Made by a program: the position numbers and the translations under genes. Below the pieces are notes generated by a model. That model worked only from the letters and a program-made list of their open reading frames with translations, was not told the origin of the DNA and did not search any database. From the IMG/VR virus record IMGVR_UViG_2600254985_000007: 28,904 bases of DNA. One strand, written 5' to 3'. How positions within the stretch are numbered: position 1 is the first letter of the stretch; each line of letters begins with the position of its first letter. This document shows positions 17,514 to 21,598 of the stretch, one piece after another. The DNA comes from a virus. Its lineage: Duplodnaviria; Heunggongvirae; Uroviricota; Caudoviricetes.

Positions 17514-18056
17514 TCATATAACCCCCAGCATCGATGTAACCATCGTCATCAGCGGTCCTACCTGCTCCGGCATGAGGCGAAACAATGACGCTATGCCCTC
17601 GCTTACCTCCTTCATTTTCTGGTGCTCAGGCGCGTTCAGGAGAACGGCTTGCTTTGCTTCTGAACATTCCTTCATGGCAGATGCGATCAGCGACATGGTG
17701 TCGTTCTGCGGCGCCAGGCGTGTACGAAACTCAACAGGAAGAACAGCCATGATTGCCGGGGTCAGTTCTCTAACGTTCTCGCGGTACTGATCGGAGTCGA
17801 AGCGGTTATCCAGAAAGCGAAAAAGTTTCTGGCGCGCCCTGCTGATGTCTTCTGGGAAGCTGATGGCGGTACCGCCCTGCTCCCGGTATTCGTTGATGAT
17901 CAGCGCTGACACTACGTCCTGATTGTCCAGGGACGACGACCATGCACGGACCGCATCGCGGATTTTGTCGTGACCTGGCTCCGCCTTAGGTTGAGCGCGG
18001 TTTATCATCGCTCCCGGGTGTATTCCGGTATTGTGTTGATACGCAAGTGAATGCAT
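17514..18056 (-). CDS. ydaT: YdaT-like protein in the cII position
   Basis: Segment ...INEYREQGGTAISFPEDISRARQKLFRFL...LTPAIMAVLPVEFRTRL... resembles Rac YdaT; follows the Cro-like YdaS gene. Start codon uncertain (alternative ATG at 18006-18008). Confidence 0.6.
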   Translation of the reverse strand: MHSLAYQHNTGIHPGAMINRAQPKAEPGHDKIRDAVRAWSSSLDNQDVVSALIINEYREQGGTAISFPEDISRARQKLFRFLDNRFDSDQYRENVRELTPAIMAVLPVEFRTRLAPQNDTMSLIASAMKECSEAKQAVLLNAPEHQKMKEVSEGIASLFRLMPEQVGPLMTMVTSMLGVI

Positions 18057-18086
18057 TGCTTTCCATTTCGTGGTTAGAGCCGCCGG

Positions 18087-18308
18087 TTAGGCGGCAAAGA
18101 TACCTGGATATAGAACTTCGCGAGGAAGTCCGGTTACTTCTTCGTATTTACGCATTTTTGTTACTGGAAGGCTGCCACCTCGCTTTTTAAGCATATTGAT
18201 GGCCTGAGGCGTTACGCCGACCTTTTCAGCAAGCACCTTTTGAGAGCCGCCCACTGCATTAATGGCTTTCTCAAGCGGGGTGCTGGCGTTGGATTTTTTG
18301 TTGATCAT
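18087..18308 (-). CDS. cro: Cro-like HTH repressor (YdaS family)
   Basis: 73 aa with HTH ...GSQKVLAEKVGVTPQAINMLKKRGG...; divergent from cI across an operator-containing intergenic region. Confidence 0.85.
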   Translation of the reverse strand: MINKKSNASTPLEKAINAVGGSQKVLAEKVGVTPQAINMLKKRGGSLPVTKMRKYEEVTGLPREVLYPGIFAA

Positions 18309-18338
18309 GTTTTGCTCCGCTCATGTGTAATCAACACC

Positions 18339-18367
18339 ATGTTAATTCATGGCGTGGATTAAATCAA
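18339..18367 (-). promoter_or_regulatory. PR-like promoter for cro within the OR operator region (operator repeats at 18328, 18361, 18385)
   Basis: Minus strand TTGATT-N17-TAACAT upstream of cro; three direct AAATC(A/C)ACA repeats in the cI-cro intergenic region. Confidence 0.5.
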
Positions 18368-18425
18368 CATTATGGTGATGGAAAAAATCCACATGTTGTT
18401 TACCATGCATGGAGCGGAGGGTTTT

Positions 18426-19136
18426 ATGAGCAGCATTTCTGAAAGAATTAAATTTTTACTGGCAAGGGAAGGCTTGAAGCAGCGGGATTTGGCTGAGGCT
18501 TTGTCGACTAGCCCACAGACCGTCAACAACTGGATAAAAAGAGACGCGTTAAGTCGTGAGGCGGCGCAACAAATATCTGAAAAATTCGGTTATTCTCTTG
18601 ACTGGTTATTAAATGGAGAGGGTTCTCCAAAGAAGGATCTGGAGAGCAACATCCCGCCAGAGTCTGAGTGGGGAACTGTCGACGCTTGGGACAAAAATAC
18701 CCCCCTACCTGACGATGAGGTGGAAGTACCGTTTCTGAAGGATATCGAGTTTGCGTGTGGTGATGGACGAGTACACGATGAGGATCACAACGGTTTTAAA
18801 TTGCGCTTTTCAAAAGCAACGCTCCGTCGAGTTGGAGCCAATAGTGATGGTTCTGGTGTCCTGTGTTTTCCTGCATCAGGAGACAGTATGGAGCCAGTCA
18901 TTCCTGATGGTGCAACTGTAGCTGTTGATACTGGTAATAAGCGAGTTATTGACGGCGAACTCTACGCCATCAACCAGGGAGATCTGAAGCGCATCAAGCA
19001 ACTTTATCGCAAACCAGGCGGAAAAATTCTAATCAGAAGCATTAATCGTGATTATGACGACGAAGAGGCCGATGAGGCAGATGTCGAGATAATCGGTTTT
19101 GTGTTCTGGTACTCGGTATTGCGATATCGCCGATAA
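18426..19136 (+). CDS. cI: CI-like prophage repressor (HTH plus S24 LexA-like peptidase domain)
   Basis: HTH ...LKQRDLAEALSTSPQTVNNWIKRD... and C-terminal S24 signature ...PASGDSMEPVIPDGATVAVD...GELYAINQGDLKRIKQLYRKPGGKILIRSINRDY. Start at ATG 18426 with GGAGG SD; the track ORF begins upstream at 18372. Confidence 0.9.
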   Translation: MSSISERIKFLLAREGLKQRDLAEALSTSPQTVNNWIKRDALSREAAQQISEKFGYSLDWLLNGEGSPKKDLESNIPPESEWGTVDAWDKNTPLPDDEVEVPFLKDIEFACGDGRVHDEDHNGFKLRFSKATLRRVGANSDGSGVLCFPASGDSMEPVIPDGATVAVDTGNKRVIDGELYAINQGDLKRIKQLYRKPGGKILIRSINRDYDDEEADEADVEIIGFVFWYSVLRYRR

Positions 19137-19165
19137 TTTTAGTGGCCTGAAGAGACGTTTGGGTG

Positions 19166-19237
19166 ATGAGAGAATATCTGATAGTAGGCGTGGTTACTTT
19201 GCTCTCGGTTGTTGCGATCGTGCTTATGGTGGCCTGA
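19166..19237 (+). CDS. candidate 23-aa hydrophobic peptide (MREYLIVGVVTLLSVVAIVLMVA)
   Basis: Manual translation of a short ORF between cI and the next gene; entirely hydrophobic apart from the first residues; weak SD. Lies between two ~28-bp direct repeats. Confidence 0.3.
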   Translation: MREYLIVGVVTLLSVVAIVLMVA

Positions 19238-19272
19238 TGAGACGTTTTGGTGAAAGCATATAAGGACTGTTG

Positions 19273-20139
19273 ATGGAAAACACTGGCTTACACGATGTTA
19301 ATTTTTCACTTAGATATGACGGTTTGGATGCTGAAAAGCATGAGATTGAACTTTCTTCGCTCGGTGAATCGCTAAAGGGATTTTCGAAGATATTAGCTAC
19401 AGCTGGAACCTTCGCATTAACCCAAAAGTACTCGCGAAGCACCTCAACTCAAGAGGTTAAAATTTACGCTACCGAAGCTAGGGCCAATTGTTTTTCTCTT
19501 GATACTATCATGAATTTTATCAGTCAGTCTCAATTGTTCTCAGGGTCTGCGGGGGCTATACTTGGCGCATTAGTGCCTTATATCTTCGCTAAAAACTCGC
19601 AGAAGAAAGAGGAAATGAAATACCTAAAAGAAGCACTTGAGAAGGCAATTGAGGCCCTCGGAAATAAAGATAAAGATACCATCTCAGGTCTAATCTCAGT
19701 GATTGACAAGATGGCTAGTGAGTTACGCCCATCAGTTAGACAGGCAGTTTCCCCCATCGGTACCACCTGTAATAAGATAAGCGTCACACCGGGGAATGGT
19801 TTCAAGCCTGCTGTAATTGATGAGCAAGATAAAGCAGTAATAGACCAGTTGGACGACGACGAAGTTCTTGGCTTAAGGGAGTATCGAATCTTCCTTACTG
19901 AATTCGACGCTCACCGAATGACCGCTAAAGTCATTATAGAAGGTGATGATTCAGATAAGCGCATCTCAGCACAAATAAGCGATCCATCTGCTTCAAAGGC
20001 AGACAACCCGTATCTCATTTCACTTAGTCGTTTTCTGTCAACGGGTCTAAGTCATGAGTCAGCGGTAAAAGTAACTGCCAAAGCAGCAGTTAGAAAAGGG
20101 GCTATTAGTAAACTTTTCATAGTTGATATTGAGCTTTAA
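19273..20139 (+). CDS. hypothetical protein (288 aa), AT-rich cargo gene in the rexAB position downstream of cI
   Basis: ORF with AAGGA SD 6 nt upstream of ATG 19273 (track start at 19270 is TTG); lower GC than flanking genes; followed by an intrinsic terminator; no recognisable family. Confidence 0.75.
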
Positions 20140-20142
20140 CAA

Positions 20143-20166
20143 CCGGCCACCGCGCCGGGTTTTTTG
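20143..20166 (+). terminator. intrinsic terminator ending the cI-cargo transcript
   Basis: CCGGC-CACCGC-GCCGG hairpin followed by GTTTTTTG, 4 nt after the stop codon. Confidence 0.7.
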
Positions 20167-20169
20167 TGC

Positions 20170-20379
20170 CTACTTCACAGCTTTACTACCCTTCCTGACT
20201 ATCTCAGCTGCATCCCTGTTCACACCCTTACCTATCACGTTTCCCGTTTCCTTCCGGTACCGTTCCAGCTTGTCGATGATGTTTTGCTGGGTCATAGGTA
20301 AATCTGCCAGTGACAACTCCATGACCGCCCGCCCCATGGCGTGAACCATCATGTTCACTCTTTCTTCATCCAAGTCCAT
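20170..20379 (-). CDS. hypothetical small protein (69 aa), divergent from PL and convergent with the rex-position gene
   Basis: Strong SD (AAGGAG-N6-ATG); MDLDEERVNMMVHAMGRAVMELSLADLPMTQQNIIDKLERYRKETGN...; no family recognised. Confidence 0.7.
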   Translation of the reverse strand: MDLDEERVNMMVHAMGRAVMELSLADLPMTQQNIIDKLERYRKETGNVIGKGVNRDAAEIVRKGSKAVK

Positions 20380-20433
20380 TACCCACTCCTTTTTGATGTT
20401 TTTTTCAGCATATCACTTATGCCACCAAAAAAT

Positions 20434-20520
20434 AAATCAACATAAAAATCAACAGTAAACGATTAAATCAACAAAATAAATCCACAAGGTGTTGACCTAC
20501 AAATCCACATGATGTTTAAT
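20434..20520 (+). promoter_or_regulatory. OL operator cluster (five direct AAATC(A/C)ACA repeats) with PL-like promoter TTGACC-N17-TTTAAT (20492-20520)
   Basis: Repeats at 20434, 20446, 20465, 20478, 20501 match those in the cI-cro intergenic region; near-consensus sigma70 promoter reading rightward into the early-left operon. Confidence 0.65.
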
Positions 20521-20560
20521 TACTCCATCGAAACGAAACATCGACAGCTGAGCGAAGTTA

Positions 20561-20592
20561 GCCAGCGGCGGACAGCAAGTCGCCTGCTTTTT
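20561..20592 (+). terminator. imperfect stem-loop with T-tract in the PL leader (candidate early terminator or antitermination-associated structure)
   Basis: GCGGCGGAC...GTCGCCTGC pairing with a bulge, then CTTTTT, about 35-65 nt downstream of the predicted PL start. Confidence 0.4.
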
Positions 20593-20936
20593 AACAACAT
20601 GCAGATTTACAGCGTCAATGACCTGTTAAGACCCCTACACGTAAACGTGCTGTATCACCGGGTGCGATCCGGTCGGTGAGAGAGTATCCCCGCGCGAGAG
20701 CGAGAACGGCGTGAGAACGGGCAACACTGGCAGGGAGTTGGCGCTGACCAATACAGGGAATGTTATGGGATGTGGTGAAGGGTTCATGGACGGGAATATG
20801 TCGCACGTAAAGCGGCGAGGCCCGAGGAGCTATTGCCGAAGATAAGTAGGCCGAATCGGGTCGAAATGGGTCTCCCACCTACCACATCGCCAAAGCATTT
20901 CTCCCGCATCAGCGGGTAACGACAGAGGGTAAGGGG

Positions 20937-21233
20937 ATGATCGACGACATCAAGCGCATCGACTCAATGATAAATGCGCTTCGCAATATGAAACAGGACA
21001 TCAAGCGTCAGCAGAAACTAAGTGAAATAAACAGTTTAGACCTGTCGCCGAAGCAAGCTCAAAAGCGCAATGCCGATGCTGACTGGATTGCGATGGAACA
21101 GATTAAGCGTCGGCATGAGCTGCACGCTCTGTCTGTTGAGCTTGGGTTCGCTGAGCGCCGGGAAAGTTATGCTCCATTTGAATTAACTGACGGGTGGCAC
21201 CGATTCGACCACAAGCCGCGCGAACCTCAATAG
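20937..21233 (+). CDS. hypothetical protein (98 aa), first ORF of the early-left operon
   Basis: ORF with purine-rich SD; basic and charged; no clear Arg-rich N-like motif. Confidence 0.6.
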   Translation: MIDDIKRIDSMINALRNMKQDIKRQQKLSEINSLDLSPKQAQKRNADADWIAMEQIKRRHELHALSVELGFAERRESYAPFELTDGWHRFDHKPREPQ

Positions 21234-21255
21234 CCGCCTAACCAGCGGCTTTTTC
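21232..21255 (+). terminator. intrinsic terminator after the first early-left gene (tL-like)
   Basis: AGCCGC-CTAACCA-GCGGCT hairpin followed by TTTTT. Confidence 0.6.
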
Positions 21256-21388
21256 ATACCTGGAGTCATTTACGAGTGGCTCAAGTTATGACAACCGGCG
21301 GCCATCCACCGACCATTGAAACACTGAATAAATGCGTTGAAGTCTTGTATTAACCGTTCCGTTCGCCGCGATAAGGCCAAGAGGATTT

Positions 21389-21598
21389 ATGAGTGATTTG
21401 GAGTTGGGCTTAAAGATATACGCATTATGGTTTGTCGGGACGTTTCTGCTCGACATAGCAATCAACTCGCTGACGAAAAAAGAACATCGCCAGCCACTTT
21501 CAAAACTAGCCATTGACCATGTACGCATGTCTTCCGCAATAACCATTGTGGGCCTGATTGTGTGCGGTATGGGCTGGTTCTTATTCAAGGTGGTGTGA
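21389..21598 (+). CDS. small predicted membrane protein (69 aa, two hydrophobic helices)
   Basis: Two hydrophobic segments (IYALWFVGTFLLDIAI and AITIVGLIVCGMGWFLF); sits where kil/sieB-type genes lie in lambda. Confidence 0.6.
   Translation: MSDLELGLKIYALWFVGTFLLDIAINSLTKKEHRQPLSKLAIDHVRMSSAITIVGLIVCGMGWFLFKVV

Follow-up and report, generated by a model that had tools for sequence, protein, structure and literature searches.

Gene 40A of phage phi80, a repressor-linked prophage cargo gene and candidate single-gene anti-phage defence

The window analysed here, the whole 28,904-nucleotide stretch of IMG/VR virus record IMGVR_UViG_2600254985_000007, is 100% identical to phage phi80 (JX871397, NC_021190). 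The subject of this work is gene 40A, a 288-residue open reading frame (ORF) downstream of the repressor gene cI that is entered as "protein 40A" (PHI80_46) in the GenBank phi80 record JX871397. It is accessory cargo consisting of one gene, carried in the slot that follows the repressor gene. Judging from sequence and genomic location, we put the probability that its product is an anti-phage defence protein of any kind at roughly 0.55. An initial annotation, made from the letters of the DNA, had proposed this region as a candidate for superinfection exclusion or abortive infection, and defence is upheld as the best reading because the family lies behind repressors in many prophages and the same slot holds BstA and PD-Lambda-2 elsewhere. 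Which gene this is, its family and fold, the conservation of its position and the presence of defence genes in the slot elsewhere are shown; expression in the lysogen, the defence function and each step of the mechanism are inferred.

The coordinates of the initial annotation are all correct, with the cI stop at 19136, ORFs at 19166-19237, 19273-20139 and 20379-20170, and a stem with T-run at 20143-20166. Together with the placement of OL and pL in the GenBank record, they confirm that the position of rexAB in lambda is filled here by different cargo on the repressor strand. The features that define the slot and its occupant are as follows.

18426 to 19136, plus strand: phi80 cI repressor, helix-turn-helix and S24 peptidase (Pfam Peptidase_S24, 9.9e-20; Phage_CI_repr, 2.5e-10; cI in JX871397).
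19273 to 20139, plus strand: gene 40A, 288 residues, DUF7946 and DUF7947 (Pfam; phrog_5147, function not known, 2e-156), with AAGGA 6 nt before the ATG.
19303 to 19845, plus strand: DUF7946 region of 40A, residues 11-191, a small beta/alpha N-domain (invariant R14, D16, G17, D19, A20, H23, N72-C73-F74) followed by a helical bundle.
19528 to 19596, plus strand: Gly/Ala-rich hydrophobic helix of 40A, residues 86-108, followed by a Lys-rich flank; borderline membrane-spanning.
19861 to 20136, plus strand: DUF7947 of 40A, residues 197-288, a beta-barrel of the OB fold in which D212, R230, D237, P238, Y247 and K270 are invariant.
20143 to 20166, plus strand: intrinsic terminator separating 40A from the converging gene orf69, with five GC pairs and a loop of 6, then GTTTTTTG.

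The cI gene is the upstream anchor of the slot, and pRM, which is annotated with the OR operators upstream of cI in JX871397, is the presumed source of transcription for 40A. A consensus scan of the phi80 sequence found no promoter-like or terminator-like sites between cI and 40A. The Shine-Dalgarno sequence of 40A (AAGGA) is good, as had been described. The lower GC content of the cargo is a true yet modest effect (0.40-0.45 in 19100-20150 versus 0.47-0.57 in the flanks). Behind 40A, the GC stem at 20143-20158 followed by T6, with runs of A and T at its two sides, fits the intrinsic terminator proposed there, and its fold energy alone is unexceptional (z -0.5). The GenBank record places the OL operators at 20435-20454, 20479-20497 and 20502-20520, and pL reads rightward to nutL and N (20937-21233).

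The slot behind cI is marked by a 30-nt direct repeat (19137-19166 and 19224-19253, 87% identity), which brackets a small ORF. The repeat motif, GGCCTGA[A/T]GAGACGTTT[G/T]GGTGA, corresponds with one mismatch to the last 23 nt of lambda cI (L034 1828-1850; ..WPEETFG plus stop). We refer to the two copies as cI-3' relics.

19144 to 19166, plus strand: first cI-3' relic, non-coding, GGCCTGAAGAGACGTTTGGGTGA; in lambda it encodes ..WPEETFG and the stop.
19231 to 19253, plus strand: second cI-3' relic, the repeat copy and leader of the 40A cassette, GGCCTGATGAGACGTTTTGGTGA.

The relic reads as a module junction or recombination scar. In Escherichia coli 730V1 a single copy, immediately after the cI stop, joins cI to 40A. 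The motif is present in at least 120 IMG/VR contigs; some of these have it as the true end of a lambda-type repressor gene, and elsewhere, phi80 included, it survives as non-coding sequence just behind the stop of another repressor. Among the matches listed, it follows at least 5 upstream repressor clusters and precedes at least 28 downstream cargo clusters. Representatives of the commonest cargos match BstA (1.4e-123, L060) and PD-Lambda-2_A (2.5e-42, a HigB-type toxin), and further common occupants are PDC-S43 (DUF3024), PDC-M63A (DUF6932) and an NYN-domain protein. The slot contains a hypothetical gene and the YafO toxin in E. coli ABWA45, PDC-M63A/B in CB7286 and KL53, and three genes of no assigned function in HK639. 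Thus the relic looks like a conserved junction at which prophages swap lysogen-expressed cargo, much of it validated or candidate defence. Gene 40A occupies exactly this relic-marked slot, which is the strongest argument for defence and an argument from location only.

A hammerhead ribozyme was considered for the repeat (CUGAUGAG...GAAA) and rejected, as Rfam gave no match in 18000-21500 up to an E value of 5 and the motif is the 3' end of lambda cI. Folding of the leader is no better than that of shuffled sequences (z +0.84). Another slot occupant (L105, 332 residues) has a layout like that of 40A: its N-domain leads into a hydrophobic helix with KKY.. behind it, and a helical stretch then precedes a beta domain at the C terminus. 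Comparison of this protein with the 40A family gave an insignificant, in-register match of the OB domain (hhalign E 0.03, probability 1.6%), which does not establish kinship; it may be a very distant relative.

The initial annotation suggested looking in other prophages for the same cargo between the repressor and the left side. At least 12 different prophages have a homolog of 40A as the immediate same-strand successor of the repressor gene, and the repressors are of several unrelated types. The distances from repressor to homolog are as follows.

E. coli 730V1, 46 nt; E. coli N68, 66 nt.
Klebsiella pneumoniae, 447 nt.
Enterobacter, 81 nt.
Morganella, 34 and 58 nt (two repressor variants).
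Vitreoscilla, 57 nt; Neisseria, 24 nt.
Mannheimia, three different prophages: 16 nt, 84 nt, and a third locus with a 75-residue ORF in between.
Metagenomic group, 29 nt.

In an Erwinia locus the repressor and the 40A homolog are separated by two genes, one with a Tlde1 domain and one for a small membrane protein. The repressors ahead of the homologs vary, with several S24-type clusters and one 131-residue type that has no S24 domain. Since they differ between loci, the conserved element is the cargo rather than the repressor. No conserved partner gene of 40A was found across the loci compared. Outside prophages, in Nitrosovibrio tenuis (L010 5908-9944), the homolog is followed by KwaA and KwaB (Kiwa) and by PDC-M36A, behind a P2 GPA-type replication gene; from its gene content, this locus makes up a compact defence island carried by a small mobile element. 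In a Vitreoscilla prophage (L020 6661-8274) the gene for a 537-residue SIR2/ThsA-like PDC-S25 protein (2e-142) separates the 40A homolog from the early-left genes, and one immunity slot thereby houses two candidate defence genes. The family spans Gamma-, Beta- and Alphaproteobacteria, elements with unrelated virion types, and elements that show no prophage genes.

The 288-residue protein had been described as lacking any named domain, which does not hold. The profile search and structure prediction suggested in the initial annotation gave DUF7946 (residues 11-191, 3.8e-62, 210 bits, cut-off 27), DUF7947 (residues 201-286, 1.2e-20, 73.8 bits, cut-off 27) and a C-terminal OB fold. Both Pfam matches exceed the curated gathering scores, which places 40A in these families. 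A word-indexed search recovered 97 relatives down to 30% identity from Enterobacterales, Morganellaceae, Vitreoscilla (Neisseriaceae) and metagenomes; PF25678 is present in all 97 of these close homologs, and PF25679 in all except a few truncated ones. A genome scan adds relatives in Pasteurellaceae, Neisseria and more distant Proteobacteria, and a DUF7946 gene is found at about 68% nucleotide identity in some 78 further E. coli genomes. An exhaustive profile search returned 632 cluster representatives, 149 of them below 1e-30, and nearly all are 270-300 residues long and cover both domains; the family size of about 630 refers to clusters at 50% identity. The rate of nonsynonymous change (dN) within the family is 0.2-0.3 with synonymous change (dS) saturated, and by sequence comparison 40A is under purifying selection. 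Invariant in 35 diverse members are D16, G17, D19, A20, H23, L27, G36, C73, P161, G163, D212, R230, D237, P238, Y247 and K270, and the N-terminal site follows the pattern D-G-x-D-A-x-x-H / N-C-F.

AlphaFold (AF2) modelled the protein confidently, the full-length chain with a predicted local distance difference test (pLDDT) score of 82 and a predicted template modelling (pTM) score of 0.67, and residues 1-195 with values of 83 and 0.83. The model consists of a new N-terminal domain, a hydrophobic helix inside a helical bundle, and the C-terminal OB fold. The N-terminal domain is new as far as the predicted structure goes, and we propose that the OB fold of DUF7947 is a ligand-sensing domain. 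The hydrophobic helix is a conserved property of the family. The Kyte-Doolittle 19-residue average at this position is 1.2-2.2 in 34 of 35 homologs, the divergent P0096 being the exception, and 1.67 in 40A itself; the classical threshold for membrane segments is about 1.6.

Two further ORFs flank 40A, a small hydrophobic one between the relics and orf69 on the opposite strand.

19163 to 19237, plus strand: small hydrophobic ORF, MMREYLIVGVVTLLSVVAIVLMVA from GTG 19163, or 23 codons from ATG 19166 (MREYLIVGVVTLLSVVAIVLMVA, 19166-19237).
20170 to 20379, minus strand: orf69, 69 residues, a small conserved gene (phrog_3975, 7e-35), with AAGGAG 6 nt before the ATG.
20407 to 20415, minus strand: candidate extended -10 element TGaTATGCT for orf69, about 30 nt upstream of the start codon and about 20 nt from OL3 (20435-20454).

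The 23-codon ORF had been called fully hydrophobic, and it is indeed the most hydrophobic of the 338 small ORFs in the window, with a score that was reached in none of 20 shuffled windows. Its Shine-Dalgarno sequence reads as weak, and neither the NCBI pipeline PGAP nor JX871397 annotates it. Among the matches listed, the 57 nt between the relics are near-invariant in 16 distinct contexts (from L032, L033, L066, L089, L092, L096-L098, L119, L127, L134, L144, L147, L154 and L162), and they differ solely in codon 2 of the frame read from GTG (ATG/ATA) and in one M-to-I change. This is too little variation to allow a test of coding constraint. The sequence upstream of the 57-nt unit is of at least 5 kinds and that downstream of it is of at least 9, among them a bare terminator. 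The 40A locus of 730V1 lacks the unit, and 40A also occurs without it in Morganella, Vitreoscilla, N68 and others. These separate distributions (730V1 on one side, at least nine other cargos on the other) rule out the small ORF as a partner of 40A. A search for an Ibs/Sib-like type I toxin gave no Rfam match in 18000-21500 up to E = 5, and 19137-19272 contains no minus-strand promoter consensus and no significant fold. The small ORF is best described as an independent mini-cassette for a putative peptide, flanked by two cI-3' relics; the relic-57 nt-relic unit could specify a small membrane peptide or an RNA, or could be a mere mobile scar. In a Klebsiella pneumoniae prophage (L016 4554-5000), the 447-nt spacer between the repressor and DUF7946 genes has two uncalled small hydrophobic ORFs, MRIGIAFPASVFIIAVAFLAWFILCGYATPGT and MSDLVIPILITLLIIGLVGIVLRLDKIFFKRRSGRDDFE, and in another contig (L092) an ORF beginning MRIGIAFP.. 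follows a phi80-type unit.

The second neighbour, orf69, is called by PGAP and is not annotated in JX871397. Its strong Shine-Dalgarno sequence (AAGGAG) is as first described, its dN/dS ratio against HK639_46 is 0.13, and by this comparison it is a real gene under purifying selection. From the placement of OL and pL in the GenBank record, it follows that orf69 converges on 40A and diverges from pL. An identical protein (WP_000362427) adjoins different cargo, the hypothetical gene and YafO toxin, in ABWA45, and in HK639 an orf69 homolog lies by pL with three other genes as the cargo. Its occurrence beside these other cargos indicates that orf69 is a backbone gene of the pL side. A role as specific partner or self-immunity factor of 40A was rejected, as the identical protein flanks other cargos. 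The 67-residue gene at this position in Klebsiella belongs to a different PHROG and matches phrog_3975 only at 0.06. Three Enterobacter phages have a counterpart of the segment from orf69 to pL, with nucleotide identity of about 80%. The TGnTATGCT element upstream of orf69 is conserved in an alignment of phi80 and HK639 despite their different operators, and the consensus promoter scan did not call it; it may be the orf69 promoter, with control by cI possible.

As judged from these distributions, the small ORF and orf69 are neighbours of 40A and not components of a 40A system. The initial annotation had grouped the three ORFs into one cassette, which is contradicted by the occurrence of the small ORF without 40A, of 40A without the small ORF, and of orf69 beside other cargos. 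The loose analogy it drew to RexB and RexA, with a small membrane peptide and a cytoplasmic protein, fails similarly, as the parts distribute separately and 40A has a conserved hydrophobic helix of its own.

For 40A as a defence protein, the following course of events would be the most likely. The gene would be co-transcribed with cI from pRM in the lysogen, and the protein would protect the lysogen from other phages. The C-terminal OB fold (DUF7947) would bind a ligand derived from the infection, which could be nucleic acid or a protein of the phage. The DUF7946 module, with its invariant Asp/Asp/His/Cys site and its Gly/Ala-rich hydrophobic helix, would be activated by this binding and would stop the infection in the style of abortive infection, most plausibly at or in the inner membrane. 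Taken as a whole, this specific scheme of a sensor-effector abortive-infection protein is doubtful. We are less hesitant, though still a little under even odds, about the broader proposal that DUF7946/DUF7947, typified by phi80 gp40A, is an unrecognised single-gene defence family swapped at the cI-3' relic, having a fold without solved relative in which an OB sensor is combined with a new effector domain that has an invariant Asp-Asp-His-Cys site and a conditionally membrane-active helix.

Several observations weigh against defence by 40A or against the membrane step. No validated defence family is matched by 40A. The sole match in a PADLOC scan, to PDC-S42, is weak (E 1.1e-5, 23 bits) and aligns residues 9-136 with profile positions 4-130 of 302, and the match to NCBIfam LAPAL_fam (NF053583) is likewise confined to the N terminus and lies below the family cut-off (24.8 bits versus 60, E 1.2e-5). 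Three further PHROGs match the N-terminal part weakly (phrog_3243, phrog_33593 and phrog_13337). Some homologs are found in non-defence settings, namely a phage head module, where the homolog sits among KilA-N and RhuM accessory genes, the vicinity of insertion sequence (IS) elements or primase-type elements, and, once, the core chromosome. The Hessa-type summed free energy (dG) of the 40A helix is +3.4 kcal/mol (family median +2.9), which makes insertion marginal, and AF2 packs the helix as the first of a soluble three-helix bundle. A membrane mechanism is uncertain for these two reasons, and from the models the helix may span, dip into or never touch the membrane. The literature searched contained no mention of DUF7946, DUF7947, PDC-S42, the protein accessions or any phenotype of 40A.

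In favour of defence, lysogens of phi80 do hinder other phages: T4 fails to plate and the yield of P1 falls 10-fold, the responsible gene being left unnamed (PMC2885432). The 18300-20600 region, which contains cI, 40A and orf69, is 100% identical in DH5alpha, DH10B, NEB 5-alpha/10-beta, TOP10, JM83, XL10-Gold, EPI300 and others, and these laboratory-strain copies belong to a defective phi80 prophage. Wild-type T4 forms plaques on DH5alpha (PMC5812732). This plating on a strain with the identical region is a further point against defence by 40A, for it means that 40A is insufficient for the T4 block, unless it is unexpressed there. It is therefore unlikely that 40A is the T4-exclusion gene of phi80 lysogens. 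Nor is it the known phi80 defence TaiEcA, which is orf63 near Q and acts on the tail assembly of lambdoid phages (PMC11364771).

Other functions have to be weighed against this evidence. The least unlikely of them, though still rather unlikely, is a non-defence accessory of lysogeny that tunes repressor stability or induction, or serves another kind of lysogenic conversion. The tight coupling of the family to many repressor types would be expected of such a protein, its OB fold could bind single-stranded DNA as the SOS signal, and the "hair-trigger" induction of phi80, whose basis is not known (PMC2885432), would offer it a phenotype; T4 exclusion, the sole exclusion phenotype that could be checked in the literature, does not fit 40A. 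However, a repressor-specific role leaves unexplained the homologs away from repressors (in the Kiwa/PDC-M36 element, in a structural module and at IS-flanked spots), and the slot swaps 40A for validated defence genes. Less likely again is a superinfection-exclusion protein that is anchored in the inner membrane by the central helix and blocks genome entry like P22 SieA, HK97 gp15 and Sie2009, instead of sensing an infection already under way. The conserved hydrophobic helix followed by a Lys-rich flank would fit a bitopic topology with the N terminus outside and the C terminus inside, the N-terminal 87 residues read as net negative, and 40A lies in the lysogeny module beside the repressor. 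The lactococcal Sie2009 gene is also found beside the repressor in a lysogeny module. Resistance of phi80 lysogens to some phages (PMC2885432) is compatible with entry blocking as well. On the other hand, insertion of the helix would be marginal (dG about +3) and AF2 places it in a bundle, the invariant Asp/His/Cys and OB-fold residues suggest ligand binding or catalysis, and the breadth of the family, over three classes of Proteobacteria, unrelated virions and non-prophage elements, is unusual for blockers bound to one injection route.

A toxin-antitoxin or addiction module, with the small peptide as a membrane toxin similar to those of type I and either 40A or orf69 as its counterpart, is very improbable. 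In size and composition (MMR, then a hydrophobic run) the peptide is like toxins of the Ibs type such as IbsC. The hydrophobicity of the ORF is statistically exceptional, HigB and YafO toxins occupy the slot of other prophages, and two other small hydrophobic ORFs lie at the same place in the Klebsiella prophage. Against such a module, the peptide unit, 40A and orf69 each occur independently, there is no Rfam match to Sib or another antitoxin RNA and no significant RNA structure, and with a weak Shine-Dalgarno sequence translation of the ORF is only putative. Least credible of all is a role in the virion or its morphogenesis, which would follow the name that NCBIfam gives to a distantly related family, "LAPAL motif-containing putative phage structural protein". 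The weak N-terminal match to NF053583 (1.2e-5) and one group of homologs between head genes point in this direction, but the score of 24.8 falls far below the cut-off of 60 and the homolog in the structural module sits among the KilA-N/RhuM accessory genes. In phi80 and most relatives, moreover, the gene belongs to the immunity region, shares the strand of the repressor and ends at a terminator ahead of pL.

If 40A is a defence protein, as we favour, prophage-borne immunity gains a family that has a new fold and comprises several hundred clusters, and one of the last unexplained immunity-region genes of a classical phage acquires a function. The widely used cloning strains DH5alpha, DH10B, TOP10, JM83 and XL10-Gold would then have an unnoticed defence background. 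As 40A is unchanged in common laboratory strains, it is testable there, and it might bias phage or defence assays in those hosts. The cI-3' relic, for its part, provides a simple sequence tag with which lambdoid prophages can be searched for defence cargo.

The cargo had been called uncharacterised. This is correct for its function; the gene, in contrast, has been annotated as phi80 gene 40A since 1988 (X13065), where it appears as 40A/40B, truncated, with 99.6% identity. In that record (L002 2974-3603) the gene is divided into "40A" (209 residues) and an internal "40B" (95 residues), a split that is probably a sequencing-error artefact given the 99.6% identity to the modern sequence. Gene 40A is thus a known but uncharacterised gene, and repressor-linked prophage defence cargo is already well known. 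Elsewhere in the phi80 immunity region, the gene at 17514-18056 (minus strand), annotated as cII (180 residues), bears the PGAP name "toxin YdaT domain-containing protein" in E. coli copies, and the cro-like gene beside it matches the Pfam family YdaS_toxin with 29.8 bits, just below the cut-off of 30. These toxin names on the cII and cro-like genes are probably misnomers for regulators.

The closest known counterpart by position is RexA/RexB, which like 40A fills the interval from the repressor gene to OL/pL on the strand of cI, with no terminator in between, so that expression in the lysogen would be expected for both. The logic of a sensor with a membrane-acting effector would be common to the two, although it is only proposed for 40A. 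The initial annotation recognised no similarity to RexA or RexB, and this is confirmed by comparison with a profile of 35 sequences of the 40A family (hhalign probability 0.3% for lambda RexA and 0.4% for RexB, below 1% in both cases); no PADLOC Rex model was matched. RexA/RexB consists of two genes that are inherited together as a unit and includes a multi-pass channel protein. Gene 40A is one gene, its sole candidate membrane element is one marginal helix, and the neighbouring small ORF, which would span the membrane once only, is inherited separately from it. RexA/RexB excludes T4 rII mutants by collapse of the membrane potential, whereas no anti-T4 phenotype is assignable to 40A; the DH5alpha plating concerns wild-type T4, and the papers found do not address rII mutants.

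BstA, the abortive-infection protein of prophage BTP1 (PMC8585504), is, like 40A, a single-gene cargo directly downstream of a prophage repressor, and the two proteins are similar in size (about 300 residues). Homologs of BstA fill the same relic-defined slot in other lambdoid prophages (L060, 1.4e-123). The folds differ, as BstA has an N-terminal KilA-N-like DNA-binding domain (PMC8585504) and 40A consists of DUF7946 and an OB fold. In the PADLOC scan 40A gave no match to the BstA profile, and the same model does detect the L060 slot occupant.

At the level of sequence, PDC-S42, phrog_3243, phrog_33593, phrog_13337 and LAPAL_fam share with 40A some 130-190 N-terminal residues, which form the DUF7946 part, and a size of about 275-300 residues. 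PDC-S42 is a proposed single-gene defence candidate, and the weak match to it counts to that extent in favour of defence. The matches to these families are weak (1e-5 to 2e-3) and leave the C-terminal domain uncovered, and the functions of the families are putative. The PD-Lambda-2, PDC-M63 (DUF6932) and YafO/HigB cargos are unrelated to 40A as proteins and, unlike it, are mostly two- or three-gene systems. They are like 40A in their place in the genome, as interchangeable occupants of the slot downstream of cI that is marked by the same cI-3' relic.

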